DNA of 64,000 nucleotides from an uncultured delta proteobacterium (GCA_963722885.1 CAVROS010000015.1:125282-189281); one strand, 5' to 3'; shown: positions 16,695 through 49,292, counted from the first letter of the stretch. Translations and numbers: made by a program. Notes: generated by a model not told the origin, from the letters alone.

Positions 16695-17951
16695 ATGGGG
16701 ATCGAAATCGGCCAGCCGATCGGGCCAGGCGCTTCCGGGCAGCGCGAGGGGGATCCCGCGGCCGGCGATCGCCTGCGGGCGCTCAGCCGCGTGACGGCGC
16801 TGGCGGCCGTCGCCAATCTGCTGCTCGTCGTCGTGAAGGGTGGCGTCGGGCTGCTCGGCGGCTCCAGCGTGCTGGTGGCCGACGCGGTTCACAGTCTTTC
16901 GGACCTCGCGACCGACGTAGTGGCACTGTTCAGTCTTCGGGTGGCCTCGAAGCCCCCGGACGAGGATCATCCCTACGGGCACGGGCGCTACGAGACGTTG
17001 GGGACGGTGTTTCTCGGCGTGATCCTGCTCGGCGCCGCGGTGGGGATCACCTGGGAAGCCTCGAGCCGATTCGGGGAGTCGGTGGTACCGGCCGGGATCA
17101 CGCTTTGGGCGGCCGGTCTCAGCATCGCCGTCAAGGAGGCGCTCTTCCAGCTCACGGTTCGAGTCGGTCGGCGGCACGAGAGCCCGCTGGTGGTCGCCAA
17201 CGCGTGGCACCAGCGCTCCGACGCCCTCTCCTCGGTTGCGGCGCTGGCGGGAATCGCAGGGGCGAGGATGGGGTTTCCCATCCTCGATCCGGCGGCAGCC
17301 GTGGTGGTCGCAGCGCTGATTGCGAAGATGGCCATCTCGGTCTTGGTTGGAGCGGTTCGCGAGGTCACCGATACGGCGCTTCAGCGAGAGATGCTCCGCG
17401 ATCTCGGCGCCGGAATTCGACGTCTCCCTGGGGTGGTGAGCCTGCACGAGCTTCGAGCGCGACGGATGGGCCCGCGGATACTGGTGGATCTTCACGTGCA
17501 GGTCGATGCCTCGACGACCGTCTCCGACGGCCACCAGGTCGCCGAGCGGGTCCGGGAGTTCGTCTTCCGGGAGCATGGAGGCGTGTCGGAGGTGCTCGTC
17601 CACATCGATCCCGAGCCCGACGAGGACCTGGCGCCGGCGGACCAGCTGTCTCGCCCCCGCGACGAGATCGAGAGCGAGGTGCGCGGGATCGCGCAGCGGG
17701 TCGATGGCGTCCGGGCGGTGACCCACGTGTTGGTCCACTTCGTGGAGCGCCGCGTGGTGCTTCAAGTCGAGATCGAGGTGGACCCCGAGCTTCGAGTCCA
17801 CCAGGCCGCTGCGGTCGCGCGAGCGCTGCGGGAGAGACTCGAGGCCGTCGGCGACGTGGATTGCGCGGACATCCACCTGGAGCTCGACGACCTCGCGCAC
17901 CGGGAGCTGCCCGCGACGCTCCAGGGACCGCGCGATCGGGGACGTTGTTGA
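16695..17951 (+). CDS. cation diffusion facilitator (CDF) family metal efflux transporter
   Basis: It has six TM segments with H/D metal-site residues (HSLSDL, HQRSD) plus a C-terminal cytoplasmic domain. The stop codon lies inside the hairpin repeat. Confidence 0.85.
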   Translation: MGIEIGQPIGPGASGQREGDPAAGDRLRALSRVTALAAVANLLLVVVKGGVGLLGGSSVLVADAVHSLSDLATDVVALFSLRVASKPPDEDHPYGHGRYETLGTVFLGVILLGAAVGITWEASSRFGESVVPAGITLWAAGLSIAVKEALFQLTVRVGRRHESPLVVANAWHQRSDALSSVAALAGIAGARMGFPILDPAAAVVVAALIAKMAISVLVGAVREVTDTALQREMLRDLGAGIRRLPGVVSLHELRARRMGPRILVDLHVQVDASTTVSDGHQVAERVREFVFREHGGVSEVLVHIDPEPDEDLAPADQLSRPRDEIESEVRGIAQRVDGVRAVTHVLVHFVERRVVLQVEIEVDPELRVHQAAAVARALRERLEAVGDVDCADIHLELDDLAHRELPATLQGPRDRGRC

Positions 17952-17969
17952 ACGCTCAACAACGTCCCC
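17938..17969. repeat. 32-nt palindromic hairpin GGGGACGTTGTTGA-ACGC-TCAACAACGTCCCC; member of GGGGACGTT...AACGTCCCC repeat family
   Basis: A perfect 14-nt stem with a 4-nt loop overlaps the stop codon of the CDF gene. Confidence 0.6.
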
Positions 17970-18068
17970 GATGACGGAGGCGTAGACACACCACTCCCCG
18001 AGCATCCCGCCGGAGGGGGCCGGAGGGGTGCTCTGAAGAGGTCACCGCTTCAGGAACTGTCGCTCGGC

Positions 18069-18284
18069 TCAATCGCCCCCGCGATACTTGAAGGAGACGT
18101 TCACCCTGGCGCGGTAGGCGAGCACCTTGCCGCCGTCGATCTGCAGGTCGAGCTTCGCGATCTCGGCGATCCGCAGGTCTTCCAGGCTCTGCGCAGCTCT
18201 ATCCACTGCGGCAGTCGCAGCCTTCTCCCAGGATTCGGTGCTGGTTCCGACCAGCTCGATGATCTTGTAGACGCTCTCGGCCAT
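18069..18284 (-). CDS. dodecin (flavin-binding) family protein
   Basis: MAESVYKIIELVGTSTESWEKAA...VSFK matches the dodecin fold signature. An AGGAGG RBS is present. Confidence 0.8.
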   Translation of the reverse strand: MAESVYKIIELVGTSTESWEKAATAAVDRAAQSLEDLRIAEIAKLDLQIDGGKVLAYRARVNVSFKYRGGD

Positions 18285-18435
18285 GTCGCTCTCCTCTTCC
18301 CGGAGATGGCGCCCGAGCGGGCCACGCCATCCAGGGGGTGCTTCCATCTTACGCCCTGGTGTCGGGAAGCCCAACGAGAATCGGTCGCTGGGTGACATTT
18401 CGAGGTGACGCGCGCAACGCGCCCGAATGGCGTAT

Positions 18436-19008
18436 TTAGAAAAGCAGGATCAGCAGCAGAGTCAATGTCGCTAGCGGCCAGATCCACGCCAGATCGCCCG
18501 GCCCCCCGCGGCCTGTGAGTCCGTGACTTCGCCTGATCCGGAGCAGCCGGTACTTCTCCGTCAGCGCGGCGAGCTTCTGATCCGAATCGGTTCTCGGTCG
18601 AATTCCCGCCAGCCAGGCGGCGAAGCCGCTGGCGATCAGGACCTTACGCAACAGGTCGATTCGGTTGTCCGAGCCACTGATGTCGGTGGCGCTGCCCGCC
18701 CACCAGCCGTCGGGGAGCCAGATCTCGACCTCCGGATTGGCGAGGATGTTGCGGTACCAATCCGAGCCGCTTCCGAAGCCGGCGAGGCAGTAGACGTCGC
18801 CGTCGACGACGACGTAGTTGAGGGGCGTTCGCCTTCTCATCCCCGTCTTGCGGCCCACATGGGTGAGCACCATGATGCGGCCGCCGACGCTCGGCCATGC
18901 GTTGAGCCCCCCGCCCAGGCCCAGGCGGAAGAGAGCCAACATGAACCGGTTCAGGTATTTGAAGGATTTGAGCAGCAGGTCTTCCGCTTTGGTTCTCGCC
19001 TCACTCAT
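18436..19008 (-). CDS. nitroreductase-family deazaflavin-dependent oxidoreductase (DUF385; F420H2-dependent reductase-like)
   Basis: The DUF385 core is MVLTHVGRKTGMRRRTPLNYVVVDGDVYCLAGFGSGSDWYRN. The gene overlaps the GH31 gene end by 4 nt. Confidence 0.8.
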   Translation of the reverse strand: MSEARTKAEDLLLKSFKYLNRFMLALFRLGLGGGLNAWPSVGGRIMVLTHVGRKTGMRRRTPLNYVVVDGDVYCLAGFGSGSDWYRNILANPEVEIWLPDGWWAGSATDISGSDNRIDLLRKVLIASGFAAWLAGIRPRTDSDQKLAALTEKYRLLRIRRSHGLTGRGGPGDLAWIWPLATLTLLLILLF

Positions 19009-21419: not shown

Positions 21420-21450
21420 ACCCGTCTTCAGGACCGTAGGAGATTCCGAA

Positions 21451-23003: not shown

Positions 23004-23015
23004 AGGCGCAGTGGG

Positions 23016-24393: not shown

Positions 24394-24511
24394 CACCGCC
24401 TCCGTTCGATTTCGGGGTCTCCCGGGTTTCTTCTCAGAGGCCCTCTGGATCCGGGCCGACGGGAGAATCCCCCTGGGGGATTGCCGTCTCTCCTCCGGAG
24501 ACGGGAGCAAA

Positions 24512-29923: not shown

Positions 29924-30016
29924 GGAATCCTCCGCCCGCCTGGGTCAGTCCGTCAGCGACGAGCCTATCAGAAGCCGCGCCCGACAAACACGCCGAAATG
30001 CGCCCCCGCCGCGGAA

Positions 30017-31447: not shown

Positions 31448-31451
31448 GGGA

Positions 31452-32549: not shown

Positions 32550-32550
32550 G

Positions 32551-32934: not shown

Positions 32935-32944
32935 CGCGAGAATC

Positions 32945-35267: not shown

Positions 35268-35310
35268 CGTCCCCTCTTCTCCCCTGGGGGCGTCCAGGCT
35301 TGGCGATTCG

Positions 35311-35348
35311 GAGAAATAATGTACTAGTTAACTAGTACATTATTTCTC
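35311..35348. promoter_or_regulatory. 38-bp perfect AT-rich palindrome GAGAAATAATGTACTAGTTAACTAGTACATTATTTCTC in divergent promoter region; candidate operator
   Basis: The palindrome is perfect over 38 nt at about 26% GC in a roughly 68% GC context. It lies between the divergent ABC ATPase (minus strand) and SDR (plus strand) genes. Confidence 0.6.
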
Positions 35349-35395
35349 TTGTGTCAAGAGGTAGTCTCTCGGTCCGAGATCGAGGGAGAAGAGCG

Positions 35396-36172: not shown

Positions 36173-36177
36173 GCTTC

Positions 36178-36242
36178 GGGGACGTTGTTGAACATTCAAT
36201 TTCCGGGCCGGGCCCGGAAATTGAATGTTCAACAACGTCCCC
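36178..36242. repeat. 65-nt perfect palindrome (32-nt arms) GGGGACGTTGTTGAACATTCAATTTCCGGGCC-G-...; repeat family member between convergent genes
   Basis: Read directly from the sequence. It starts 6 nt after the SDR stop and ends 3 nt before the stop of the convergent thiolase-like gene. Confidence 0.65.
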
Positions 36243-36245
36243 GTT

Positions 36246-37718: not shown

Positions 37719-37791
37719 GCTGCCTTCTCCATTCGCGCGAGCTGGATTCGCAGGAGCGTGATCGCTGGGAGCTCGTCGCCCGGGATGCGCG

Positions 37792-38025
37792 TCAGGAGCA
37801 GCCCGTACCCGCTCTCTCGCAGCCGCCGCAGGTCGGTCCCGCGAAGCTCTCGCATGCGGCCGCCTCTGCACCGGTGGCGACGCCTCCGACGTTGTGAGCG
37901 CTCAGGGTCTTGCTGAGCTTCCCGCCATCGCCGGTGGGGCAGTCCTCGAGGGGCGGATCCGACAAGCGCTGCAGGGCCTCGACGGTCTGGCCGCAGGAAT
38001 CACAGATGTACTCGTAGATCGGCAT
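37792..38025 (-). CDS. FmdB-family zinc-ribbon protein
   Basis: The N-terminus MPIYEYICDSCG....CPTC is the FmdB/CxxC_CxxC_SSSS signature. The gene lies directly upstream of the thiolase-like gene. Confidence 0.65.
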   Translation of the reverse strand: MPIYEYICDSCGQTVEALQRLSDPPLEDCPTGDGGKLSKTLSAHNVGGVATGAEAAACESFAGPTCGGCERAGTGCS

Positions 38026-38110
38026 GACGAAAACGTCGTCCATCCGCGCTGGATGTCAACCGAGGGCGGGATTGGCGGAGGACCCCCGATACGCGCCAGA
38101 ATGGTGACCA

Positions 38111-39623
38111 ATGCGGACCTTGGGAGCCTTGGTGGCGCTGGCGCTGGGAGTCCTGGCCTCGAGCGCCCAGGGGGCCGAGCTGTTTCGCCGCGGGGACTTC
38201 GTCGTGGATTTCTCCGGGTCGATCCGAAGCATCGGCCTCGCGACTCGGGGCACCGATCTGGAGGACTTCGAGGAGGCCGCGCGCGAGTCTCTGGTGGAGC
38301 CCGACCCGCTGGCGATCGCCATTCTCAGCGATCCCGAGCTGCGGGGTCTCCTCGAGGCCACCGCCCCCGGGCTGGTGCGTCGAACTCACCGAGTCGATCG
38401 TGGATCCGGTCTGTCTGCTGGCCGAGTTCTTCGAGGAGTGCCCCGCCTTCGACGAGGTCGGGGGGACCGGCGTCTGGCAGAGCCTGACCCGGCTCCGCTT
38501 GCGCTTCGATCTCCAGTTCTCCCAGTCGCTCTCGGCCAGGCTCGAGTACGACAACGAGCTGGTGATGGGGAAGCTGGACACGCTCGAGTTCCGGGGATTC
38601 GATACCACGGACGTGGATCCCTTCCTCCCCCTTCAGGATGAGATCTCGAACTTCGATCTGGGAGGAGACGCGCGAGGCGTCTGGCGCCACTCGCTGTATC
38701 GCGCCTGGCTGAACTGGGAGACGGAGCACTTCCAGGTGATCCTGGGCCGACAGCGGATTCCCTGGGGCGTGGGGCGGCTCTGGAACCCGATCGATCGCTT
38801 CAATCCGATCTCTCCCCTCGCGATCGAGCAGAACGAGTCGCCGGGGGTCGATTCCGTGGTGGCGACCTGGTTCGTCAGCGACGCCGCCGCGCTGGATTGG
38901 GTCTATGCGCCGGGCGACAACGGAGACCATCAAGACTACGCGCTGCGGCTGCACGGTCTGGTGGCGGATACGGATTATTCGCTGATGGCGGGAGTCTTCG
39001 ACGACGCCAACACCGTCGGCGGGACCCTGGAGCGAAACCTCGGCGAGATGGCCATCCACCTGGAAGCCGTCTACGCCGACCCGGATGCGCTCTACTGGCC
39101 GGTGGGAAGCTCGCGGCCCAGCGATCTTCCCTCCTACTGGCAGGTCGTCGTCTCACTCGACACCAACATCGACGTGGGGAAGGGAATCTACGCACTGGTC
39201 GAGTACCTCTACAACGGCAACGCGCTGGGTCTGGGGGGCGGGCGCGCCGGCTCCCTGCTCTCGTTCTACGAATCCACCATGACGCCTCCGGCCGAGCTGC
39301 CGCCGGCGCTCGGGGCGATCTTCCCGGGCCCTTACGTGCAGCCGATCAGCAGCGATCGCTTCGGCGGGAGCCGCGTCGTCAGCTTTTCTCGGCATCAGAC
39401 CGGGTTGATGCTGGGCTACGAGCTGACACCGACGCTGCAGGGCGATCTGCTGGTGATCTACGACTGGGACGGTCACAGCTCCGCGATCGCCCCTCAGCTC
39501 AGCTACACGCCGCGCGGCGATCTCGAGGTTACGCTGGGTATCCAGCTCTTCACGGGAAACCGCGACTCGCAGTACGGCGGGGCGGAGAATCTCGCCTTCC
39601 TCACCGTCGACTACTTCTTCTAG
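38111..39623 (+). CDS. outer-membrane beta-barrel protein (alginate-export/DUF1302-like); 1-nt frameshift near 38390
   Basis: The signal peptide is in ORF 38111..38641. The body in ORF 38400..39623 has alternating amphipathic strands and a C-terminal ...LTVDYFF (terminal Phe). Confidence 0.6.
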
Positions 39624-41452
39624 CCCGCTCGGCACTCCTGCTCGGCGCGCTCTGCGTCTGCGGTCCGATCGTCGAAGCTGCCCTGGTCGAGCTCCGGCGC
39701 CACCAGTCCTCGCAGGACATGCGTCTGCTCCTCGGTGGATGCCATCCGCGCCGCGAGGGCGCGCAGCAGGGCCAGGAACCCCTCCACCTGATGGGCCTGG
39801 CCGAGCGCCGCTTCGAACTCCAGGGCCACGTCCCGGTGCAGCAGCGTGCCGTCGGTCAGCCGGAGCTGGCCATCCGGGGAGAGCTCTGCCAGACGAACCA
39901 GCGCGGCGCGCAGAATCGGATCGACGAAGTCTGCGGAGGGCGTGAGGGCGCGGGCGAGATCGGTCGGCTCCAGGCCCTCGCGAAGCGCCGCGTCGAATCG
40001 CAGCGCGCAGTCCGAGACCGCATCGGGTCGGATCTCCGCGAGGCCGTCCAGTGCCCGCCGCGTGGTGCGGACCTCGGGACGATGGAAATCCAGAACGGTG
40101 CGGTGTAGCTGGCGGGCGGTCTCGAAGCCGGTGAAGACGCGCAGCGTTGGAATCTCGTCTCTCGCCGCCTCGCCGAGGTGAAGCTGCAGGAGGAGATCGC
40201 TCCCCAGCTGGACGGCGGTCGCCCTCTCGATCTGGGGACTCTGCAGAGAGTCGAGCACGGTTCCGGCGGCTTCACCCAGTGCCGCTTCGGTCAATACCAC
40301 GTAGAACTCGCGGTCGGTGTTGCCCACGCGCACCTCCAGCTCGGCGCTGCTCAGCAGCGTGAGTGCACCGCGCTCCGCCAGGTAGCGATATCCGACGATC
40401 TCCACCCGATTCGAGATCCGTTCCAGATCGATCTGTAACTCGCTGGTGTCGCCATGCAGAGGCGCGGTGAAGCTTGCAGGCTGGTAGCCCGGGACGAAGG
40501 CCCGGACACTCAACGAGTCGTCCCGGTGGGCGACGAAGCGGCTCGGCAGCTCGACATCGAGGGGCGCCCGCACCTGTTCGAACATCAGGCGGGCGCCGTG
40601 CCGCAGATAGGCGAGATCGAGAAGCGCGCCGGGTGGGTTCGTCTCGATGCGGATCGACCGCTGGCGGAAGTAGTGCCACGGTCTCGCCAGGGCGGGTAGC
40701 AGATTCGCCCACTCGGCCAGGGAGTCCGGCTTCATTGCGATGCCCGAAGCGGTGAGTGACGCGTGGGGCTTGAACCGTCGCCGCAACGAGGTGGAGAGCA
40801 GCCGAAAGGTGCCGGTGCGGGTTCCGTCCCGCCTGTAGCTTCCGGTCAGCCGGTCGCCGCTGGCGCCCGCGGATTCCGTCGTCATGACCGTCTGCGAGAG
40901 AGCGGCGACGGCGCCGGGGCGACCCAGCATCTCATCGATGCTGAAGACGGGGAGCTCTCGAGTTCCCGACACGGAGCCGGCCAGTCCGAAGCTCATCGGC
41001 GCGCGGCTCTTCCGGAGCGCATCCGAGTCGGCGCGCGTCCGCCACCCCCCAGCTTCGGTCTGCTCGAGGGTGAGGATCCGGGTACCGCGCGGATTCGTGA
41101 AGAGACCGCGCTCGATCTCCCGGCGCTGCGAGCGGCTCGGCTCCCATGGACCCACCACGCGTCGATCGCGCTCGAAGCGGCCGCGAGAGTCCACGAAATT
41201 GACGATTTCGTATTCCGTCCACAGCAGCCGCTCGCCTTCGCGCTGGAAGTCCCAGATGCGATCTTCCCAGCGCAACGCGCCCGGGTTCGAGGAGGTGGCA
41301 TCCCGGTAGTGCACCAGCAGATACCAGGTTCCCTCCAGCTCGACTGCCGGCGCCGCGTCTGCGACGAGAAGCAAGGCGAGGGCGACGGCACCGCGGCGGA
41401 CCCAGGAGGCCGCCCGAAACGAACCTGAAGCTGAGCCAGAAACCGTGCTCAA
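39620..41452 (-). CDS. hypothetical secreted protein (approx. 600 aa)
   Basis: Signal-like AVALALLLVADAAPA, mixed composition, no recognised family. The start is uncertain. Confidence 0.45.
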   Translation of the reverse strand: MSTVSGSASGSFRAASWVRRGAVALALLLVADAAPAVELEGTWYLLVHYRDATSSNPGALRWEDRIWDFQREGERLLWTEYEIVNFVDSRGRFERDRRVVGPWEPSRSQRREIERGLFTNPRGTRILTLEQTEAGGWRTRADSDALRKSRAPMSFGLAGSVSGTRELPVFSIDEMLGRPGAVAALSQTVMTTESAGASGDRLTGSYRRDGTRTGTFRLLSTSLRRRFKPHASLTASGIAMKPDSLAEWANLLPALARPWHYFRQRSIRIETNPPGALLDLAYLRHGARLMFEQVRAPLDVELPSRFVAHRDDSLSVRAFVPGYQPASFTAPLHGDTSELQIDLERISNRVEIVGYRYLAERGALTLLSSAELEVRVGNTDREFYVVLTEAALGEAAGTVLDSLQSPQIERATAVQLGSDLLLQLHLGEAARDEIPTLRVFTGFETARQLHRTVLDFHRPEVRTTRRALDGLAEIRPDAVSDCALRFDAALREGLEPTDLARALTPSADFVDPILRAALVRLAELSPDGQLRLTDGTLLHRDVALEFEAALGQAHQVEGFLALLRALAARMASTEEQTHVLRGLVAPELDQGSFDDRTADAERAEQECRAG

Positions 41453-41586
41453 ATCTGAACCTTGCGCGGAAACCGGGATCGGAGCCCAATCCCGATAATC
41501 TCGAGTATATGGGAGGTGCGGCTACAGATGGGGCGGCCATCGGATCCGTTGCGGCCCTTTGCGTCCGATGCTCTAAGCTTTCCCGA

Positions 41587-43041
41587 ATGGATTCCCTCCT
41601 CCGCAAGTCCGGCAGCGAGCTCGCTCGTCTCATCCGAGAGGGCAAGTTCAGTGCGCTCGAGGTGGTCGAGCGTCACATCGCGCGCATCGAGGAGGTGAAC
41701 CCGCGGCTCAACGCCGTGGTGCGCGAGCGCTTCGACGCCGCCCGCCAGGAGGCGGTGGAGGCGGATACGCTGGCCGATATGGCGCCGGCTGCCGATCTGC
41801 CGCCGCTCCACGGTGTTCCCTGCACCATCAAGGAGTCCTGCGCGCTCCGCGGGATGCCGAACAGCTCCGGGCTCGTCTCGCGAGCGGGGATCGTCTCGGA
41901 GAAAGATGCGCCGCCGGTGGCGCGCCTGCGCGCGGCGGGTGCGATTCCTCTGGGTGTCACCAACACCTCGGAGATCACCGCCTGGCCGGGGGCCGAGAAC
42001 CGCGTCTACGGCCGCACTGGAAACGCCTACGATCCTGATTGCCAGAGCGGCGGAAGCTCGGGGGGCGAGGGCGCGATCGTCGGCGCCGGGGGCTCTCCCT
42101 TTGGCCTGGGGACCGACATCGGGGGCTCGATCCGAATTCCCGCGTTCGCGAACGGCGTCTTCGGGCACAAGCCCTCGGCCGGGCTGGTCCCCGGCACCGG
42201 CCAGTATCCGACCTACGACGGCCGGCTGCAGCGCTTCAACACCACGGGCCCGCTGGCGCGCCGGGCCGAGGACCTGATGCCGCTGCTGCGGATCCTGGCG
42301 GGACCCGACGGCGAGGATCTGGGCTGCATCCCTATCGAGCTGGGCGACCCCGCCGGCGTGAAGCTGGATTCGATCCGCGTGATCGTGGTGGCGGGCGATG
42401 CTCGGCGTTCGATCGACCCGGAGCTGCGCATGGCCCAGCAGAACGCCGCCTATGCGCTGGCGCGCAGCGGTGCCCGGGTCGAGATGCAGAACCCTCCCCA
42501 CCTGCGCCGCGCCGCAGAGATCTACCTGGGCCTGATGTTCGAGGCGGGCGGGATGCCGATCGAGAACGCCCTCGGAGACGGGAAGCCCATTTCGCTGGGA
42601 CGCGAGGTGGCCCGCGCCCTGGTCGGGGCCTCTCCCCACATGCTGCCGGTGCTCCTCCTCGCCGTGTTCCAGCGTCTCGGGCGCCTGGCGAGAAAGCGCC
42701 TCGCCCGCGACGCCGCAATCGGGCACGAGCTGCAGGCGGAGCTGCGGGACCTGCTCGGGGACGATGGCGTGCTGCTGTTCCCCTCCGCGCGCTCGACGCC
42801 GCCCCGCCAGGGAAGGAATCTGGCGGCCCTGTCCAACTTCGTCTTCACGGGTCTCTTCAACGTGCTGGAGATGCCGGTGACCCAGGTGCCGCTCGGCATC
42901 GGCTCCCAGGGTCTGCCCCTGGGCGTGCAGGTGGCCGGAGCCCACGGCAACGACCATCTCAGCATCGCCGTTGCCATGCAGCTGGAACGCCTTCTAGGGG
43001 GTTGGACGCCGCCGGCGCTCTTCGAAGCGCACTCCTCGTAG
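41587..43041 (+). CDS. amidase (amidase-signature family)
   Basis: GGSSGGEGA...GTDIGGSIRIPA amidase-signature block and the Ser-cisSer-Lys triad region. Confidence 0.9.
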   Translation: MDSLLRKSGSELARLIREGKFSALEVVERHIARIEEVNPRLNAVVRERFDAARQEAVEADTLADMAPAADLPPLHGVPCTIKESCALRGMPNSSGLVSRAGIVSEKDAPPVARLRAAGAIPLGVTNTSEITAWPGAENRVYGRTGNAYDPDCQSGGSSGGEGAIVGAGGSPFGLGTDIGGSIRIPAFANGVFGHKPSAGLVPGTGQYPTYDGRLQRFNTTGPLARRAEDLMPLLRILAGPDGEDLGCIPIELGDPAGVKLDSIRVIVVAGDARRSIDPELRMAQQNAAYALARSGARVEMQNPPHLRRAAEIYLGLMFEAGGMPIENALGDGKPISLGREVARALVGASPHMLPVLLLAVFQRLGRLARKRLARDAAIGHELQAELRDLLGDDGVLLFPSARSTPPRQGRNLAALSNFVFTGLFNVLEMPVTQVPLGIGSQGLPLGVQVAGAHGNDHLSIAVAMQLERLLGGWTPPALFEAHSS

Positions 43042-43181
43042 GTGATTTTCCCCTCAAGTTCCGGGGATTTGGCGCCGATTCCTGAAACGCGCGTTTGAAT
43101 CACCCGTCTGACCGAGGCGAGCACCGCATCCGCGTGTCGCCTCTCGAGCGAGAGCTGCGAGCCAGACCGAGGTAGCCCCCC

Positions 43182-43958
43182 ATGGCCAGCCAAGACACCC
43201 GCGAGAGGCTCCTCAATGCCGCGGAGCAGCTCTTCGCAGAACACGGGATCTCGGGCACCACGCTGCGCGCGCTCACCAGGGTCGCCAGGGTGAACCTGGC
43301 GGCGGTCCACTATCACTTCGGGGGCAAGGAGGGGCTGCTGGACGCCGTGGTGGAGCGGCGCGCAGCGGCCATGAACCGGGAGCGCCTGCGCGAGCTCGAC
43401 GAGCTGGAGCGATCCGCCGAGCGACTTGCCGGGGGAGCTTCGAACCCAGGGGCGCCCCAGGTCGAAGACATCCTGCGCGCCTTCTTTCTCTCCGGGCTGC
43501 GTGCCTTCGAGAGCGAAGAGCCGGAGACCGTCGAGCTCCTGACACGGCTGAGCGCCCGCATCACCTGCGAGCCACCCGAGGCGATCGAGGCGTTGGTCCG
43601 CAAGCACTTCGGCACCGTGATGAGGCGCTTCGTCGAAGCTCTGCAGTCCGCTCTCCCGGGGCTTCGCAAAGAGGTGGTGGACGATCGCTTCCGCTTCGTG
43701 ATCGGCACCCTCAGCCACGTCTTCTCCGGGACCTTCGATCTCGACGTGATCCCCGGCCACGGTGTCTGCGAGACCAGCGACGAGGAGAGGATCCAGCACC
43801 TGATCATCTTCCTCGCCGCCGGCTTGCGAGCGCCCAATCCACCCCTGGGTTCCCGCGATGTCAGCCCTGCGGCGCTCCTGCGAAGCGGCGGGATCCGAAA
43901 CGATGCCGGGCGATCTGGAGATGAAGGGATGGAGAGCCGCAAGGAAGCCCGACGATGA
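43182..43958 (+). CDS. TetR/AcrR-family transcriptional regulator
   Basis: N-terminal HTH RERLLNAAEQLFAEHGISGTTLRALTRVARVNLAAVHYHFGGKE. There is an ATGA overlap with the MFP gene. Confidence 0.9.
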   Translation: MASQDTRERLLNAAEQLFAEHGISGTTLRALTRVARVNLAAVHYHFGGKEGLLDAVVERRAAAMNRERLRELDELERSAERLAGGASNPGAPQVEDILRAFFLSGLRAFESEEPETVELLTRLSARITCEPPEAIEALVRKHFGTVMRRFVEALQSALPGLRKEVVDDRFRFVIGTLSHVFSGTFDLDVIPGHGVCETSDEERIQHLIIFLAAGLRAPNPPLGSRDVSPAALLRSGGIRNDAGRSGDEGMESRKEARR

Positions 43959-45121
43959 CGCCGACCAAGAAGATCGTCCTTCCCATCCTGGTCGTCCTGG
44001 TGGGAATCGTCGGTGCGACGGGGCTGCTCAGGGTCCGACCGAGCGTCGCCACCCACAGCACTGCTCCCCCCATTCCGATGGTGCGCGCGATGACGGTCGA
44101 GCTCCAGGACGTGCAGCTGCGCATCGAAGCCCAGGGCAGCATCACACCGCGCACCGAGAGCGACCTGGTGGCCGAGGTCGCGGGCCGCATCACCTGGGTC
44201 TCTCCCAGCCTCGCCGCCGGAGGCTTCTTCGAAGAGGGGGAGCTGCTGGTCCGGATCGACGCCAGCGACTACGAGCTGGCAGTAGAGAGAGCGGAGGCCG
44301 CACTCACGCGTGTGCGGAGCGAGCTCGCCCTGGCGCAGAACCACCTGGACCGCCGCCGAAGTCTGGCCGAGCGCGGTGTGGCGAGCACCGCCGCCCTCGA
44401 CGAGGCCGTGAATACCGAGAGGGTGGCGAGCGCGGCGGTGCGCGACGCGCGCGCCTTTCGGAGCCAGGCGCGCCGAGACCTGGAGCGCAGCCGCATCCTG
44501 GCGCCCTTTGCCGGACGCGTGCGTGAGAAGCGCGTTGGTGTCGGCCAGTTCGTCGGGCGAGGCGCCGGCGTGGCGAGGATCTACGCGGTCGATTACGCCG
44601 AGGTCCGGCTTCCGATCCCCGACCACGAAGCCGCCTTCGTGGACCTGCCGATCGACTACCGGGGCGAGGCGGGCGAGAACGATGGGCCAGAGGTGCTGTT
44701 GCGCGCGCGTTTCGCGGGCCGCGAGTACAGCTGGACCGGGACCATCGTGCGCACCGAGGGCGAGATCGACCCGCGCACGCGGATGATCCAGACGGTGGCG
44801 CGCATCCAGGACCCCTACGGCCGCAGCGCGCAGCTGGACCGGCCTCCTCTGGCGGTGGGAATGTTCGTCAAGGCGGAGATCAGCGGCCGCCTCCTCGAGG
44901 ACATCGTGGTCCTGCCGCGGTCGGCCCTGCGCGGTCGCGACCGGGTGGTGGTGGTGGACGGGGAGAACCGCCTGCGACTGCGGCGCGTCGACATCCTGCG
45001 CACGGAGCGCGAGACCGTGGTGATCACTGGCGGCCTCGCCCCGGGTGAGCGGGTCTGCACCTCGCCCCTGGAGACGGTCGACGAGGGCAGCCAGGTGAAG
45101 ATCGTCGTGGAAGAGTCGTGA
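43955..45121 (+). CDS. efflux RND transporter periplasmic adaptor subunit (membrane fusion protein)
   Basis: N-terminal TM, coiled-coil hairpin, and the biotinyl/beta-barrel pattern (RILAPFAGRV). Confidence 0.9.
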   Translation: MTPTKKIVLPILVVLVGIVGATGLLRVRPSVATHSTAPPIPMVRAMTVELQDVQLRIEAQGSITPRTESDLVAEVAGRITWVSPSLAAGGFFEEGELLVRIDASDYELAVERAEAALTRVRSELALAQNHLDRRRSLAERGVASTAALDEAVNTERVASAAVRDARAFRSQARRDLERSRILAPFAGRVREKRVGVGQFVGRGAGVARIYAVDYAEVRLPIPDHEAAFVDLPIDYRGEAGENDGPEVLLRARFAGREYSWTGTIVRTEGEIDPRTRMIQTVARIQDPYGRSAQLDRPPLAVGMFVKAEISGRLLEDIVVLPRSALRGRDRVVVVDGENRLRLRRVDILRTERETVVITGGLAPGERVCTSPLETVDEGSQVKIVVEES

Positions 45122-48100
45122 ACCGCGCGATCGCCTGGTTCGCCGGGAATCACGTCGCCGCCAACCTGCTGATGATGCTGCTGCTGGTGGGCGGGCTCCT
45201 CTCGATTCCCACCATCAAGCAGGAGGTCTTCCCGGAGCTCAGGCTCGACGTCGTCACCGTGAGCGTGGTCTATCCGGGCGCCGCTCCGATCGAGATCGAG
45301 GAGGGCATCTGCATCCGGATCGAGGAGGAGCTGCAGGGCCTCCAAGGCGTCAAGCGCATCAGCTCGACCTCCGCGGAAGGAGTCTGCCTGGTCAGCGTCG
45401 AGCTGCTGGCCGGCGAGGACGTCCGCCGCCGCCTCGACGAGATCCGCGGCCGAGTCGACGGGATCGACAGCTTCCCCGAGGAGGCGGAGAAGCCCGTGAT
45501 CGTCCAGGCCAGCGTGCGCTTCCAGGTCCTGGACGTGGCCGTCTCGGGCGATGTGGATGAGGTGACCCTGAAGAACCTGGGCCAGCAGGTGCGCGACGAG
45601 ATCGCCGCTCTGCCGGGGATCACCGACGTCGAGCTGGTGGCGACGCGTCCCTACGAGGTTGCCATCGAGGTCTCGGAGGACGCGCTCCTGCGACACGACC
45701 TCACCTTCGACCACGTGGTGCGCGCGGTGCGCCGATCCTCGATGGATCTACCGGGGGGCTCCGTCAAGACCGCCGGTGGCGAGATCCTGATCCGCACCAA
45801 GGGTCAGGCCTACCGCGGAGGCGAGTTCGAGGGGCTGGTGCTGCTCTCGCACCCGGACGGCTCTCGGCTCCAGCTGGGGGACGTCGCCCATGTAGTGGAT
45901 GGCTTCGAGGAAACGGACCAACTCGCTCACTTCGACGGCCGACCCACCACGCTGGTGGAGGTCTACCGGGTGGGCGATCAGAGTGCGCTGGAGATCTCGG
46001 CGACTGTCCGGGACTACATCGAGCAGGCGCGAGAGAGGCTCCCCGCCGGCGTGACCCTGACCGTCTGGCAGGAGAATGCGCGCTTCCTTCGCACGCGCCT
46101 CGACACCTTGCTTCGCAACGGCCGAGACGGCTTTGCCCTGGTGCTGCTGGTGCTGGCCCTCTTCCTGCGGTTGCGCCTCGCCTTCTGGGTGAGCCTCGGT
46201 GTACCGCTCTCGTTTCTGGGCACCCTCTTCGTGATGCCGAGCCTGGACCTGTCGATCAATCTGATCTCGCTGATGGCCTTCATCGTGGTGCTGGGCATCG
46301 TGGTGGACGACGCCATCGTGGTGGGGGAGAACGCGTACACCGAGCACTCACGGGGGGCCGAGCCGCTTGCGGGGGCGGTCGCCGGCGCCCAGGGGATCGC
46401 GATGCCGGTGATCTTCGGTGTCCTCACCACCATCGTGGCCTTCGTCCCGATGCTGTTCGTGGCGGGACCGATGGGTCGGATGACGCGCATCATTCCCATG
46501 ATCGTGATCGCGTGTCTGATCTTCTCCCTGATCGAGTCGCTCTTCGTGCTCCCTGCCCACCTCGCCCTCGCAGGCGCGCGGGAGACCCGGGGCAAGAACC
46601 CCGTGACGCGGAACTGGCTTCGCTTCCAGGGCGCCGTCGCTGCCGCGCTGCAGTGGTGGATCCGCGAGGTCTACAGACCCGTCCTCGAGATCCTCCTCGA
46701 GTGGCGCTATCTCACCGTCGCCGCCGGCGTCTCGATCCTGCTGATTGCGATGGCGATTCTCGGCGGAGGCTGGCTGCGTTTCGTCTTCCAACCCGAGGTG
46801 GAGGGCGAAGTGGCAGTCGCCTATCTGACCATGCCGCTGGGAACCCCCGTCGAGGTCACCTCGGAGGCGGTGAGCCAGCTGGTCCGCTCCGCCGAGGAGG
46901 TGCGCCGCGAGATCGATGCGGAGCGCGAGTCGGGCAGCGTGATCGCCCACGTCTTCGATGCGGTAGGCGAGCAGCCCTACCGCCGCCGTCAGGCATCGAG
47001 CATCGCTGCCTTCAGCGAGGCGACCGGTATCGGCAGCCACCTGGGCGAGGTCGAGATCGAGGTGGTTCCCTCGGAGGAGCGCGAGATCACCGTCGAGGAG
47101 CTCACCCGGCGCTGGCGGGAACGAACCGGGATGATTCCGGGCGCCGTGGAGCTGAGCTTCGTGTCGACGTTGATCACCGCCGGAGCACCGATTCACCTGG
47201 AGCTCGCCGGGCCGGATCTCGAAGAGCTGGCCTCGGCCGCCGAGCGAGTCAAGAGTGGCCTCGCCGCCTACCCGGGCGTGATCGACATCTCCGATTCCTT
47301 CCGCGGCGGCAAGCAGGAGATCGAGCTGGAGATCCTGCCCGAGGCCGAGGCCCTCGGGCTCACCCTCTCCGATCTCGCCGGTCAGGTGCGACAGGCCTTC
47401 TACGGTCACGAGGTCCAGCGCATCCAGCGCGGCCGCGACGACGTCAAGGTCGTGGTGCGCTACCCGGCGGAGGATCGCCGCTCTCTCGGCGATCTGGAGA
47501 GGATGCGCATCCGCGCCGCGGACGGCTCCGCGGTGCCCTTCACCAGTGTCGCCCGCGCGAACCTGGGCCGCGGCTTCTCGTCGATCCAGCGCGAGGATCG
47601 GCGCCGCGTCGTCAGCGTCACCGCCGGCGTCGACAGCCGGATCGCCAACGCCAACGAGATCATCGCCGACCTCAAGAGAGAGGTGGTGCCGGAGATCGAG
47701 GCCATTCACCCTCGCCTGCAGATCTCCTTCGGCGGAGAGCAACGCGAGCAGGCGGAGGTGCTGGAAAGCCTGATCCGGGGGTGGGTCATCGCGCTCTTCG
47801 CCATCTACGCGCTGCTGGCGGTGCCGCTGCGCTCCTACGTGCAGCCGCTCATCATCATGGCCGCGATCCCCTTCGGGCTGGTCGGCGCGGTCGGCGGGCA
47901 CCTGATCATGCAGTACAAGTTCAGCATGATGTCGGTGGTGGGACTGGTAGCGCTCTCGGGTGTGGTGGTGAACGACAGCCTGGTGCTGGTCGACTACATC
48001 AACAGGTGTCGCGCGAAGGGCGCCGCGCTGCAGGACGCGATTCGCGAAGCGGGAGCCGCGCGCTTCCGCGCCATTCTTCTCACCTCGCTCACCACCTTCG

Positions 48101-48360
48101 CGGGCCTGACTCCCCTGCTGATGGAGCAGAGCGTGCAGGCCAAGCTCCTGATCCCGATGGGCATCTCCCTTGCCTTTGGCGTGATCTTCGCCACTCTGAT
48201 CACCCTGGTGATGGTGCCGGTCAGCTACCAGATCCTCGAGGACCTGCTCCAGGCCGCCGGTCGGCTGCTGCGGAGGGGCGATTTGGAGGACGCGATGCCG
48301 GTGGAGATAAAGCCCGATGCCGCACGCCAGGAGAGCGGCGGCGGATCGGGCATGCGGTGA
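45118..48360 (+). CDS. efflux RND transporter permease subunit (AcrB/HAE1-like)
   Basis: A 1080-aa intact ORF with 12 TM segments and two large periplasmic loops. There is an ATGA overlap with the MFP gene. Confidence 0.95.
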   Translation: MNRAIAWFAGNHVAANLLMMLLLVGGLLSIPTIKQEVFPELRLDVVTVSVVYPGAAPIEIEEGICIRIEEELQGLQGVKRISSTSAEGVCLVSVELLAGEDVRRRLDEIRGRVDGIDSFPEEAEKPVIVQASVRFQVLDVAVSGDVDEVTLKNLGQQVRDEIAALPGITDVELVATRPYEVAIEVSEDALLRHDLTFDHVVRAVRRSSMDLPGGSVKTAGGEILIRTKGQAYRGGEFEGLVLLSHPDGSRLQLGDVAHVVDGFEETDQLAHFDGRPTTLVEVYRVGDQSALEISATVRDYIEQARERLPAGVTLTVWQENARFLRTRLDTLLRNGRDGFALVLLVLALFLRLRLAFWVSLGVPLSFLGTLFVMPSLDLSINLISLMAFIVVLGIVVDDAIVVGENAYTEHSRGAEPLAGAVAGAQGIAMPVIFGVLTTIVAFVPMLFVAGPMGRMTRIIPMIVIACLIFSLIESLFVLPAHLALAGARETRGKNPVTRNWLRFQGAVAAALQWWIREVYRPVLEILLEWRYLTVAAGVSILLIAMAILGGGWLRFVFQPEVEGEVAVAYLTMPLGTPVEVTSEAVSQLVRSAEEVRREIDAERESGSVIAHVFDAVGEQPYRRRQASSIAAFSEATGIGSHLGEVEIEVVPSEEREITVEELTRRWRERTGMIPGAVELSFVSTLITAGAPIHLELAGPDLEELASAAERVKSGLAAYPGVIDISDSFRGGKQEIELEILPEAEALGLTLSDLAGQVRQAFYGHEVQRIQRGRDDVKVVVRYPAEDRRSLGDLERMRIRAADGSAVPFTSVARANLGRGFSSIQREDRRRVVSVTAGVDSRIANANEIIADLKREVVPEIEAIHPRLQISFGGEQREQAEVLESLIRGWVIALFAIYALLAVPLRSYVQPLIIMAAIPFGLVGAVGGHLIMQYKFSMMSVVGLVALSGVVVNDSLVLVDYINRCRAKGAALQDAIREAGAARFRAILLTSLTTFAGLTPLLMEQSVQAKLLIPMGISLAFGVIFATLITLVMVPVSYQILEDLLQAAGRLLRRGDLEDAMPVEIKPDAARQESGGGSGMR

Positions 48361-49223
48361 TCCGCGCCTTCAGCTGGATCGCGGTCGCCTACCTGGTGGC
48401 GGGAGCCGTGGCGCTCGCCGTCGCCATGCCGCTGCGCGGCGAACACCCGATCCTGGTGGCTGCTGCCGCGGACCTGGGCGCCACCCTCGCGATCTTTGCC
48501 TTCAGCCTGGCGTTTCGGAACTCGAGCTTCTACGACGCCTACTGGAGCGTCGCGCCCATCGCGATCGCCTTCTACTGGTGGCTATCGGCGCCCGAATCCG
48601 GCGCGGATCCGGTGCGCGGGTGCCTGGTTCTCGGCCTGGTGAGCCTCTGGGGCGTTCGCCTCACCACCAACTGGGCCCGCGGCTGGCGGGGGCTCGGTCA
48701 CCAGGACTGGCGCTACACGGATCTCCAGAAGCAGACGGGTCGCGCCTATTGGGCGGTGAGCTTTCTCGGCATCCACCTGTTTCCCACCCTGATGGTCTTC
48801 CTCGGATGTCTCCCACTGTTTCCGGCGCTGGCCGAGCCGGTCCGGCCGTTTGGGGTGCTGGATCTGGTGGCCGCGGGGATCACCGGCTTCGCGGTCTGGC
48901 TCGAGGCCACGGCGGATCGTCAGCTCCGCCGCTTCACCACCGCCTCCCACCCGCCCGGGGAGTTCCTCCGCAGCGGCCTCTGGGCGTGGTGCCGGCATCC
49001 CAACTACCTGGGAGAGATCCTCTTCTGGTGGGGGCTCCTGGCCTTCTCCCTGGCGGCGGGCGTCATCTCCTGGTGGACTGCGGTCGGCGCCATCGCCATC
49101 ACGGTGATGTTCCGGGTCGTCAGCCTGCCCATGATCGAGCGGCGCATGATCGAACGCCGCCCGGCCTATGCGGAGCACGCGAAGCGAACCTCGGCGCTCC
49201 TGCCCCGTCGCCCCGCCGCCTGA
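48357..49223 (+). CDS. DUF1295 / isoprenylcysteine carboxyl methyltransferase-like membrane protein
   Basis: The GTG start overlaps the RND stop (GTGA). The protein has multiple TM segments and the C-terminal HPNYLGE motif characteristic of ICMT/DUF1295 proteins. Confidence 0.75.
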   Translation: MIRAFSWIAVAYLVAGAVALAVAMPLRGEHPILVAAAADLGATLAIFAFSLAFRNSSFYDAYWSVAPIAIAFYWWLSAPESGADPVRGCLVLGLVSLWGVRLTTNWARGWRGLGHQDWRYTDLQKQTGRAYWAVSFLGIHLFPTLMVFLGCLPLFPALAEPVRPFGVLDLVAAGITGFAVWLEATADRQLRRFTTASHPPGEFLRSGLWAWCRHPNYLGEILFWWGLLAFSLAAGVISWWTAVGAIAITVMFRVVSLPMIERRMIERRPAYAEHAKRTSALLPRRPAA

Positions 49224-49228
49224 AAGGC

Positions 49229-49292
49229 GGGGACGTTCCTTGCGTTCTTGCGTTCCGGCAAGCCGGAACGCAAGAACGCAAGGAACGTCCCC
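49229..49292. repeat. 64-nt perfect palindrome (31-nt arms, 2-nt centre) GGGGACGTTCCTTGCGTTCTTGCGTTCCGGC-AA-...; repeat family member between convergent genes
   Basis: Read directly from the sequence. It starts 6 nt after the DUF1295 stop and ends 9 nt before the stop of the convergent hydrolase gene. Confidence 0.65.

Follow-up and report, generated by a model that had tools for sequence, protein, structure and literature searches.

Three long palindromes at gene ends in an uncultured delta proteobacterium, probable members of a dispersed, head-tagged repeat family

Introduction

What are the long, perfect palindromes that lie between convergent genes of an uncultured delta proteobacterium, and what keeps them there? 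For mycobacteria there is continuing debate over how transcripts end in GC-rich genomes that are poor in U-tracts, and a hairpin shared by two convergent genes touches directly on that question. The stretch analysed here (the window; 64,000 nt, GCA_963722885.1 CAVROS010000015.1:125282-189281) carries several such palindromes. An initial annotation, made from the sequence, took them for one family with shared termini, either REP/BIME- or MITE-like or a protein-recognised bidirectional terminator.

Results

Three palindromes in the window are real, with common termini and differing inner arms as first described, and their arms (17, 33 and 33 nt) are slightly longer than had been noted:

17935-17972, no strand assigned: element 1, subfamily A short form, 17-nt perfect arms with a 4-nt loop
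36177-36243, no strand assigned: element 2, subfamily A long form, 33-nt perfect arms with 1 nt between them
49227-49294, no strand assigned: element 3, subfamily B, 33-nt perfect arms with 2 nt between them

Each palindrome outgrows a core, at 17938-17969 (GGGGACGTTGTTGAACGCTCAACAACGTCCCC), 36178-36242 and 49229-49292, respectively. The terminus CGGGGACGTT stands at both ends of all three, a C precedes and a G follows every copy, and the flanks weakly continue the palindrome (A(G/T)...(C/A)T). Within each arm, a conserved 10-12-nt head, A(G/T)CGGGGACGTT, leads into a body of about 16 nt that differs between subfamilies and is often built of two tandem 8-nt units or of a self-palindromic motif; a fast-evolving, GC-rich apex completes the arm. 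In element 2 the body GTTGAACATTCAATTTCC separates the head, CGGGGACGTT, from a GC-rich apex, while in element 3 the head is followed by two tandem 8-nt units (CTTGCGTT twice) and the apex CCGGC. The internal tandem of element 3 (TTGCGTTC twice) and the identity of the first 16 nt of copies 1 and 2, both pointed out initially, were confirmed. Element 1 reads ATC-GGGGACGTT-GTTGA-ACGC-TCAAC-AACGTCCCC-GAT and is linked to the long form of subfamily A by a metagenome scan pattern of head, GTTGAAC-GTTCAAC and head.

The gene context given by the initial annotation also stands. Element 1 carries the stop codon of the CDF transporter gene (TGA, 17949-17951) within its left arm, and encodes the last four or five codons as well as the stop. 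Element 2 occupies the 73-nt spacer between the stops of the convergent SDR (36172) and thiolase-like (36246) genes, and element 3 lies between the convergent DUF1295 (49223) and alpha/beta-hydrolase (49301) stops. Convergent spacers in the window are mostly 0-12 nt long without an element, as against 73-81 nt with one. The 9-mer GGGGACGTT occurs 7 times in the window where 0.50 are expected, a count reached in 0 of 100 shuffles. RNA folding predicts -34, -63 and -71 kcal/mol for elements 1, 2 and 3 (z = -7.9, -14.0 and -14.2). An Rfam search returned nothing at the gathering threshold, and below it only generic miRNA-hairpin noise.

Three further sites in the window have a weaker claim to membership:

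62794-62803, plus strand: orphan head CGGGGACGTT directly past the TAG stop of the FAA-hydrolase gene, membership doubtful
60040-60064, no strand assigned: possible degenerate short relative, CGGGGACGCT-CTCT-GCGTCCTT, low confidence
11857-11867, no strand assigned: GGGGACGTCCC, similar to the head-to-head minimal palindromes of relatives (L153 at 4317; L285)

The first had been listed as a half-site at 62797-62816. Its head is present, but those coordinates lie two bases too far right (the half-site spans 62795-62814), and its membership is unproven: one isolated 9-mer is no more than chance would give (0.5 expected), the 91 nt across the spacer (62790-62880) fold no better than shuffles (z = -0.05), and the rest of the FAA-hydrolase spacer (62805-62870) is a different direct-repeat family. 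Orthologous spacers in five related contigs also hold a different direct-repeat family, with neither head nor palindrome. The minimal GGGGACGTCCC is likewise where it had been reported, but it sits at the 5' end of a glycosyltransferase ORF, in a divergent region and not at a gene 3' end, and is probably a chance occurrence unrelated to the family; we probably have to place both it and the half-site outside. The motif at 60040-60064, 12-36 nt 3' of the stop of a minus-strand gene (60076-60657), has one head mismatch and a stem of six Watson-Crick pairs.

Whether the shared termini might be a matter of chance was a question raised by the initial annotation. A genome scan and a metagenome scan, each with at least 120 matches, speak against chance: the head delimits numerous palindromes elsewhere, on further contigs and in further genomes. 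Both scans needed intact heads, so that the sample is biased towards well-formed palindromes, and the apparent modal length of 63-65 nt is cut short by the search pattern. At least dozens of near-perfect palindromes of 60-67 nt on high-GC contigs carry the same head. Copy 2 has at least 15 close paralogues in metagenome contigs (subfamily A), and copy 3 has a near-identical 64-nt counterpart in a non-orthologous context (L097) and a relative in a Myxococcota MAG (L002). Paired copies occur within single MAGs (L034, L074/L080, L081/L108, L040/L058, L090), and tandem 8-nt duplications specific to an element are frequent in the arms of the metagenome matches. The elements thus form a multi-copy family with subfamilies.

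The head also marks shorter multi-copy families in Collinsella, Bacillota, Omnitrophota and proteobacterial MAGs, with at least about 85 loci in Collinsella that group into sets of orthologous sites, and at least about 30 near-identical copies on 40-46% GC contigs whose metagenomes come from sludge, digesters and elsewhere. Among named relatives, those nearest to the source organism are Myxococcota and Binatota-type MAGs, at no more than 73% amino-acid identity. There were no Mycobacterium loci among the matches listed, no match on 72,556 plasmids, and no match to the element family in the catalogues and open-access literature searched. In one phage group, GGGGAC(G/C)TT forms iteron-like arrays beside a primase-helicase gene.

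Placement at gene ends is a property of the family as well as of the window. Among the matches listed, the 20 high-GC elements with both neighbours called comprise 15 between convergent, 2 between divergent and 3 between co-directional genes, and for most high-GC elements the distance to a stop codon is 0-30 nt; the elements of L097, L002, L034 and L102 are placed likewise. Copies settle in post-stop spacers that are otherwise tiny (0-12 nt), above all between convergent genes, and in being multi-copy, extragenic and enriched after genes and between convergent ORFs they match REP/REPIN repeats.

Such a position, exactly between convergent stop codons, is also what would be expected of bidirectional terminators (factor-independent 'I-shaped' or convergent-collision) that had evolved independently, with the common GGGGACGTT base a functional convergence on a strong GC clamp. 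The hairpins are extremely stable on both strands, the elements of low-GC carriers lie inside larger palindromes that have an A-tract at one flank and a T-tract at the opposite one, and the TRIT of Mycobacterium is a precedent for a terminator-like hairpin of conserved sequence near stops (PMC3152330). However, no T-run adjoins copies 1-3 in the sequence as read, and high-GC copies are not bordered by A- or T-tracts. The initial annotation had made the same point; a terminator consensus scan of 30001-50000 bears it out for copies 2 and 3, neither of which was called, and copy 1 lies outside that range. Terminator-like sites in the scanned stretch are at chance level (5 against 5.8 expected). 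With a hairpin and no U-tract, the elements are not canonical intrinsic terminators. Mycobacterial hairpins that lack U-tracts reportedly do not terminate in vitro (PMC3993855), and overlap minimally with mapped 3' ends (bioRxiv 10.1101/2022.06.01.494293). Arms of 31-33 bp, moreover, are far beyond what termination needs. Finally, 26-nt bodies are conserved in at least 16 non-orthologous copies and the 64-nt copy recurs in an unrelated context, which indicates copying and not convergence. We regard independent origin as unlikely.

The arms are kept strictly Watson-Crick complementary through paired changes. Covariation of the arms had been proposed initially as a check on the family, and it came out in favour of that proposal: in 16 subfamily-A copies double changes are found at 10 of 31 pairs with 98% of cells paired, a level reached by 0 of 500 shuffles, and in L154 one pair of the element 3 orthologue has undergone a compensatory change. 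There is almost no G-U in this covariation, which fits a DNA-level constraint equally well as a constraint on RNA from two strands.

When close relatives are compared, some copies are retained at the orthologous site and others have been lost or rearranged. Element 3 is represented in L285 by a half element plus a minimal palindrome and is absent from the orthologous spacer of L153; element 2 is absent from L123 (96% nucleotide identity) and replaced in L124 by a rearranged element with a different body between its heads, at an identical right-hand offset from the thiolase stop. Different bodies at one offset fit interior exchange at a fixed site better than transposition of a whole element. 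They also recommend a reading in which a short GGGGAC-GTCCCC palindrome is the primary conserved post-gene site and only interiors move: a site-specific enzyme or template switching would insert or exchange them, or make them grow in place, at the ACGT centre of that palindrome. Minimal head-to-head palindromes do exist at gene 3' ends (GCGGGGACGTCCCCGC in L153 at 4317; CGGGGACGTCCCCG in L285), full elements have the form GGGG-ACGT-T...A-ACGT-CCCC, with ACGT duplicated around the interior, heads are nested in L102, L034, L035 and L072, and tandem 8-nt duplications in the arms would be expected of growth in situ. On the other hand, the empty orthologous sites in L123 and L153 lack even the minimal palindrome, which as a form is equally well explained as a slippage scar between two ACGT direct repeats; the interior termini differ so widely that no single cassette-type recombination site is evident, and no recombinase candidate was found. 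We consider this reading rather improbable.

A further possibility is a classical MITE, derived by deletion from a DDE transposon, with terminal inverted repeats starting GGGGACGTT and mobilised in trans. Its identical inverted termini, small size, multiple copies and intergenic position would suit the family. No direct repeats flank the copies, however, and no target-site duplication or clean junction emerged when filled and empty orthologous sites were compared. Past the first 10-12 nt, the 'terminal inverted repeats' of copies 2 and 3 are wholly different within one genome. An autonomous parent with the same termini was found neither in about 280 loci (among the matches listed) nor on the plasmids, and the 1-7-kb stretches examined between paired copies hold ordinary housekeeping genes, with no longer head-bounded element. 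Among the matches listed, about 150 loci outside Collinsella and the genome-scan loci have no recurrent transposase-like ORF within 3 kb, and no RAYT gene lies next to any copy examined; this local search is a weak one, since one would expect a single RAYT-type gene, located at some other place in the genome. A MITE origin appears very unlikely.

It is hardly probable, in our view, that the elements serve a regulator or nucleoid protein (NarL/LuxR-type, for example DosR) as binding sites in duplex DNA, read through their GGGAC/GTCCC half-sites, with an incidental interior. The DosR box TTSGGGACTWWAGTCCCSAA has the same half-sites (PMC2703886), and the phage arrays near the primase-helicase gene make it plausible that proteins reading this word exist. 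Nonetheless, the elements are at gene 3' ends and not in promoter regions, the distance between their half-sites varies from 14 to 47 nt, the interior is held to strict pairing as a spacer would not be, and the family spans phyla with different regulator repertoires.

Discussion

Our analysis favours, at a probability of roughly 0.55, a reading of the three palindromes as copies of a dispersed, head-tagged REP/REPIN-like repeat family, non-coding and non-autonomous, that form 3'-end hairpins for both convergent transcripts. The alternatives offered by the initial annotation are supported overall, with the exception of the MITE. Like REPs and REPINs, the elements are short, non-coding, multi-copy palindromic repeats with subfamilies within a genome and a short tag shared across taxa on variable stems. 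Their arrangement often allows a long hairpin, they lack target-site duplications, their usual place is 3' of a gene, where the flanking ORFs converge or run in the same direction, and sometimes over a stop codon, and they decay while persisting at orthologous sites; roles in mRNA 3'-end stability or termination are proposed for both. Tags conserved across phyla on variable stems have a precedent (Di Nocera et al., 2013, PMC3733652), and GTAG-tagged REPs are mobilised by RAYT Y1-HUH transposases (Bertels and Rainey, 2011, PMC3116915; Di Nocera et al., 2013, PMC3733652). Several results count against the favoured reading: the local searches turned up no mobilising gene, the filled and empty sites compared gave neither a clean junction nor a target-site duplication, and the unlike bodies of the window and L124 at one offset suit an exchange of interiors at a fixed site.

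The family is nevertheless distinct from the systems it resembles, and fails the tests for GTAG-REPs, CGTC-REPs, MITEs and canonical terminators. In place of an unpaired 5' GTAG (or GT(A/G)G) tail there is a tag, (A(G/T))CGGGGACGTT, that is base-paired and found at both ends, with no GTAG adjacent; the high-GC element is one perfect 31-33-bp hairpin, whereas a REPIN consists of two imperfect 8-13-bp REP hairpins and a spacer, and no RAYT gene occurs in the local neighbourhoods examined. CGTC REPs come closer in that CGTC is found in the head on one strand (AACGTCCCC), and they too span several phyla, have no dedicated transposase and dimerise head to head, so that a single large hairpin can form (PMC3733652). 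Their CGTC, however, is unpaired and precedes a stem of 8-9 bp that opens with AT; the loop has 4-5 nt and the tail is CCA (PMC3733652). Here, by contrast, the motif is reversed relative to the stem-loop (GACG 5'), paired and flanked by GGGG/CCCC, on stems of 14-33 bp without the CCA tail. TRIT, a motif with no Rfam family, numbers about 147 per genome, is tightly linked to gene ends, often over the stop codon (around position -8), and has been reported only in Mycobacterium (Gardner et al., 2011, PMC3152330). It is similar in being a largely palindromic, bidirectional hairpin of conserved sequence without a canonical U-tract, for which a binding factor is suspected, and in overlapping stop codons, as element 1 does. 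Our elements are set apart by the description of TRIT and not by its sequence: the head occurs in many phyla, with no Mycobacterium among the matches listed, and they are not centred about 8 nt before a stop, element 1 alone overlapping one.

Bidirectional intrinsic terminators also serve two convergent units with one hairpin, and low-GC copies share their A-tract and T-tract sides. The high-GC copies differ from them in having no such tracts, arms two to four times the length of terminator stems, and a sequence common to unrelated loci. The attC sites of integrons are likewise bounded by short, inverted, conserved termini around a variable palindromic interior directly after an ORF, and work as a folded single strand. 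They follow the pattern RYYYAAC...GTTRRRY, are imperfect, with extrahelical bases, and belong to arrays of co-oriented cassettes beside an integrase. In our elements, by contrast, the order is GTT...AAC, the arms are perfect, the neighbours are convergent housekeeping genes, and there is no integrase.

Under the REP/REPIN-like reading, both convergent transcripts would enter the element and each would fold the same 31-33-bp hairpin (-63 to -71 kcal/mol), which could then be a shared 3'-end structure that blocks 3'-exonucleases. It could also pause or terminate the polymerase and insulate the gene pair from read-through without a U-tract, in the manner of REP elements and bidirectional terminators. 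We infer this RNA-hairpin function entirely. The invariant head may be the part recognised by the agent that copies or maintains the elements, for which a trans-acting enzyme and head-to-head template switching or recombination are candidates, and errors that the hairpin provokes during replication, through template switching or through loss of the DNA between the ACGT direct repeats, might produce both the rapid turnover and the perfect arms.

More tentatively, the GGGGACGTT-headed palindromes may constitute a third, uncatalogued cross-phylum superfamily of tagged palindromic repeats beside the GTAG and CGTC REPs; at less than even odds, we suggest that a conserved enzyme or hairpin-templated copying at the DNA level keeps their 30-bp arms perfect, swaps interiors between fixed heads and leaves GGGGACGTCCCC scars, and that they are the default 3'-end structure of convergent pairs without U-tract terminators in many uncultured high-GC bacteria.

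If the preferred reading is right, an unannotated class of 3'-end element is present in many uncultured high-GC bacteria and in cultured gut Collinsella, and could explain how convergent genes with stops 70-80 nt apart are insulated without canonical terminators. For annotation, the elements mark true gene ends and can supply stop codons, as in the CDF gene; short-read assemblies are also likely to be broken or wrongly joined at them. Together with the strict Watson-Crick symmetry, the series of full, compensated, half plus minimal, and absent forms at orthologous sites provides a natural system for the upkeep and loss of palindromes, and a 10-12-nt head that is invariant across phyla points to a conserved factor that recognises it.

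Three perfect palindromes with common termini

In the window, which has a G+C content of 67%, no perfect inverted repeats within 120 nt are longer than the three palindromes singled out in the initial annotation:

17935-17972: element 1, arms of 17 nt with 4 nt between them
36177-36243: element 2, arms of 33 nt with 1 nt between them
49227-49294: element 3, arms of 33 nt with 2 nt between them

All three have the termini CGGGGACGTT...AACGTCCCCG, and the left 9-mer of this conserved head, GGGGACGTT, occurs seven times in the window against 0.50 expected from dinucleotide-preserving shuffles, none of which reaches seven. (The same 9-mer is the 5' end of Bacillus tmRNA, a resemblance that we take to be a coincidence.) Folded as RNA, either strand gives a single uninterrupted hairpin, of -34, -63 and -71 kcal/mol for elements 1, 2 and 3, with z-scores from -7.9 to -14.2.

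The elements had been described as sited between convergent genes, and our gene calls, which used codon-position G+C together with Pfam, confirm the neighbours. Element 1 includes the stop codon of the CDF transporter gene and its last four or five codons, element 2 occupies the 73 nt that separate an SDR gene from a thiolase-like gene, and element 3 the 77 nt that separate a DUF1295 gene from an alpha/beta-hydrolase gene. At the remaining convergent junctions in the window the stops mostly overlap or have 0–12 nt between them (31–40 nt or other sequence at a few), so the elements make up nearly all of the spacer wherever they are present. The reported lack of a T-tract also holds for elements 2 and 3: a T-run is absent from both, and a terminator consensus scan of positions 30001-50000 calls neither, the number of terminator-like sites in those 20 kb being at chance level (5 versus 5.8). 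Beyond element 1, about 466 nt (17970-18435) separate the palindrome from the next confidently coding gene; this stretch contains only weak ORFs, and may hold a small gene or other non-coding sequence.

18069-18398 and 18101-18487, minus strand: weak ORFs between element 1 and the quinone reductase gene
18436-19008, minus strand: F420H2-dependent quinone reductase gene, the next confidently coding gene past element 1

A family of headed palindromes beyond the window

The pattern GGGGACGTT-N17-47-AACGTCCCC had at least 120 matches in a scan that took one genome for each GTDB species. Among those listed, about 85 are a 40-nt Collinsella element that groups into orthologous-site sets across Collinsella species; its carriers include strains of the cultured species Collinsella aerofaciens (L021, L069, L072, L095). 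The others include long palindromes, perfect and with these same termini, from several MAGs.

MAG loci with headed long palindromes (MAG contigs may carry wrong taxon labels, e.g. L097)
Myxococcota: L002
'Spirochaetales' bin, 69% GC: L097
Omnitrophota: L081 and L108, nearly identical to each other
Clostridia and Lachnospiraceae: L041, L045, L074/L080, L102
Oscillospiraceae: L034, two copies
Gammaproteobacteria: L090 and L119

The L097 copy is almost identical to element 3 across 64 nt in a non-orthologous context, lying 2 nt past one stop codon and 13 nt before a convergent one.

A metagenome scan with 10-mer heads also gave at least 120 matches, and those listed include dozens of near-perfect 60–67-nt palindromes on contigs of 64–78% GC, which fall into clear subfamilies. 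In subfamily A (at least 15 copies) the arm GGGGACGTTGTTGAAYGTTCAAYTTYYC is followed by a variable GC-rich apex; element 2 belongs here, and element 1 is a short form in which the two heads enclose only GTTGAAC and GTTCAAC. In subfamily B each arm adds to the head a tandem pair of 8-nt units, which vary by element (GTTGAATA, GTTTAGAA, GTCAAGTT, GTTGAGTT, CTGCTTAA), the unit of element 3 being CTTGCGTT, present twice. On contigs of 40–46% GC from sludge, digester and other metagenomes, the matches listed include about 30 near-identical 51-nt elements, found in both orientations and flanked by GGGACA...TGTCCC. In the low-GC genomes the palindrome continues into the flanks, which A- and T-tracts border, and nested or tandem heads are also present.

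Both scans demanded intact heads, and the modal length of 63–65 nt is limited by the upper bound of the search pattern; longer copies, of 75–122 nt, were met incidentally. Random 9+9 matches would show no palindromic interior, within-genome recurrence or shared bodies, and singletons in some phyla could be due to chance, given the size of the collection. Two short-read contigs carry an SDR gene 100% identical to that of the window: one (L122) stops at the SDR stop codon, and the other (the Logan contig L121, 855-999) becomes unrelated sequence at that stop, where the window palindrome begins, likely through a k-mer assembly break or mis-join at the perfect palindrome. Perfect palindromes of such size probably break or mis-join k-mer assemblies, and the family may therefore be under-represented in short-read MAGs.

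Placement after stop codons

Both neighbouring genes could be called for 20 of 78 high-GC metagenome elements, and the pair was convergent in 15, co-directional in three and divergent in two. Where only one neighbour was called, 29 elements adjoin the 3' end of the gene and nine do not. The distance to the stop codon in these high-GC elements is mostly 0–30 nt, with several overlapping the stop. In the flank logo, position -2 is A (61%) and position -1 is G or T, which extends the conserved head to about 12 nt; TAG directly precedes the head in 9% of ends.

The arms covary

It had been proposed that the arms should covary as palindromes in related genomes, and an alignment of element 2 with 15 copies from metagenomes (L260, a degenerate relative, and 14 members of subfamily A), all of which come from a pattern demanding both heads intact, bears this out. 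The consensus helix has 31 pairs, with standard pairs in 98% of cells and double changes in 10 of the 31 pairs (45 cells; shuffles 14.9 ± 3.9, none of 500 as high). Sliding the partner by 1–3 columns lowers pairing to 34–51%, and G-U appears in only 2 of 492 cells. Such Watson-Crick strictness fits either a structure needed on both strands, as expected if both convergent transcripts use it, or a homogenising process at the DNA level.

Orthologous sites in relatives

The closest named homologues of the source are Myxococcota or Binatota-type MAG proteins with at most 73% identity; metagenome contigs provide nearer relatives. Related contigs include one of 1.2 Mb (ERZ25039603 contig_609) and one of 0.7 Mb (ERZ25039514 contig_16550). 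The SDR/thiolase junction was found in three states. Element 2 is complete in the window; in L123 (96% nucleotide identity over ~19 kb) 7 nt replace 71 nt, with no duplication and with differences in the adjacent codons as well; and L124 (~85% identity) has GGGGACGTTATGCGTTCGTCCCCAATCGTAAGAACGTCCCC, with a right head at exactly the window's offset from the thiolase stop (CCCC-GTT-stop) and a different, rearranged body consisting of a short hairpin and a right-arm fragment. The hydrolase/DUF1295 junction has four states: the full perfect element 3 in the window; a full element in L154 (85% amino-acid identity), which has a tRNA_edit gene downstream in place of DUF1295 and whose element shows a single compensatory pair change (GCGTTCC/GGAACGC to GCATTCC/GGAATGC), a single mismatch in the head and a new loop; a left arm and, after it, the minimal palindrome CGGGGACGTCCCCG in L285 (91%); and just an 18-nt spacer in L153 (86%). 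We therefore conclude that the elements are inherited at orthologous sites, constrained in their pairing, and quickly deleted or rearranged.

These sites bear on how the elements spread. One option is that a putative trans-acting enzyme would read the head and mobilise the whole element. The other is that the heads stay fixed while interiors are exchanged or grown in situ. What keeps this option alive is that the window and L124 have different bodies at an identical right-hand offset, that heads can be nested, and that the arms carry tandem units peculiar to each element. The minimal GGGGACGTCCCC stands alone in L153, 5 nt past an amidase stop; slippage between the two ACGT direct repeats at the base of the hairpin would produce just this sequence, or alternatively it could be a primary site that receives interiors.

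Separately, two convergent genes that overlap at their stop codons in the window (39620-39623) are parted in the 96% identical L123 by an extra 1.36 kb with an MFS-transporter fragment (14163-15522), a further indel at a convergent junction.

Candidate partial copies and a second repeat

The half-site, an orphan head after the FAA-hydrolase gene, starts at 62795 rather than at 62797 as first given, and adjoins the TAG stop of that gene. One extra 9-mer is compatible with chance, a 91-nt stretch across the half-site spacer folds no better than shuffles, and the FAA-hydrolase/polB spacer of five related contigs has neither head nor palindrome. A supposed minimal copy at 11857, GGGGACGTCCC, turned out to lie where a glycosyltransferase ORF begins, within a divergent region. 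Membership of either in the family is unproven. We also rejected a casposon or PolB link of the half-site: the neighbouring polB is of the ordinary chromosomal kind, its product has 761 aa in relatives, and its synteny is conserved.

In those five contigs the FAA-hydrolase/polB spacer carries a different, direct-repeat element, TTCGTTCGCCTRCGGCTCACTGCG..., which is also in the window at 62805-62870. It represents a second, non-palindromic intergenic repeat family, CCTTGTGAACTTCGTTCGCCTACGGCTC, which follows closely on two different stop codons; a 24/28 copy of its opening 28 nt (62805-62832) is at 55935-55962 on the minus strand. In one of the contigs (L279, 10874-10970) it is tandem, with two units of about 49 nt each (TTCGTTCGCCTGCGGCTCACTGCGCGCGCCAGGGGCGCTTGC).

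Other palindromes and GGGAC words

The window also contains a 38-nt perfect AT-rich palindrome, GAGAAATAATGTACTAGTTAACTAGTACATTATTTCTC, at 35311-35348, in the spacer from which the SDR gene and an ABC-transporter operon diverge. It resembles an operator rather than the GGGGACGTT family.

about 32551-32934: GntR-family regulator gene, within that ABC-transporter operon

The Myxococcota MAG OZ245002.1 (L002, 7354-7438) has a perfect palindrome of 85 nt whose arms are 41 nt long and whose termini are unrelated (ATGAAGAAGTGGGGCC...), and very long perfect palindromes in these genomes thus extend beyond the GGGGACGTT family. Collinsella and Omnitrophota loci contain other terminator-like palindromes with GGGGAC-N-GTCCCC or GGGAC-N-GTCCC at the apex or base (L003 5873-5911, L027 6047-6079, L036 4582-4612, L064 1982-2018, L086 2091-2155); the GGGAC/GTCCC word recurs in hairpins outside the headed family.

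In phage-like IMG/VR contigs of ~62% GC, inverted triads of GGGGAC(G/C)TT iterons surround about 100 nt of CA/GA-rich sequence (L130 5190-5560, L126 3700-4040, L133 70-400), within the 3' part of a primase/helicase-like ORF of 1206 aa that was listed mechanically. The layout resembles a replication origin, and plausibly some protein reads the word as duplex DNA; we judged these arrays, found in one phage group and located at the primase-helicase gene, to be a separate phenomenon. Kineococcus xinjiangensis has tandem arrays with a 73-nt period (L012 2094-2215; L085 393-514 and 1569-1691), in each unit of which AACGTCCCCGCC...GGCGGGGACGTT makes an inside-out hairpin between degenerate 31-nt segments. 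A CRISPR was ruled out, since the 'spacers' are alike.

Comparison with known systems

No Rfam family reached the gathering threshold in the window and 15 loci, E-value mode returning only sub-threshold miRNA-precursor hairpins, and a full-text literature search with the head sequences in both orientations found just primers and an unrelated DosR-box table. The plasmid collection had no match to element 2, element 3 or one low-GC element, and almost none of 28 matching loci in viral contigs were palindromic. We saw no target-site duplication at the copies or at the filled and empty sites compared, and no longer element bounded by heads among the loci examined; between paired copies lie genes such as hisC and a Kef-type antiporter. 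Clustering of ORFs in the 2.5–3 kb around elements showed no recurring transposase, only orthologous neighbours and common paralogues (ABC ATPases, SDRs). Unlike RAYT-associated REPs, the elements have no GTAG tag, and they lack the architecture described for CGTC REPs (PMC3733652). Their nearest functional analogue, as judged from its published description, is TRIT, a terminator-like hairpin motif reported as restricted to Mycobacterium (PMC3152330).

A possible shared role at convergent 3' ends

The best-supported reading of the elements is a REP/REPIN-like family of head-tagged palindromic repeats in the spacers after stop codons. Their position and stability, and the analogy with REPs and bidirectional terminators, suggest a shared role as 3'-end hairpins: a single hairpin would serve the 3' ends of both convergent transcripts, where it would block exonuclease and would act, without a U-tract, as a pause or termination signal that also provides insulation.
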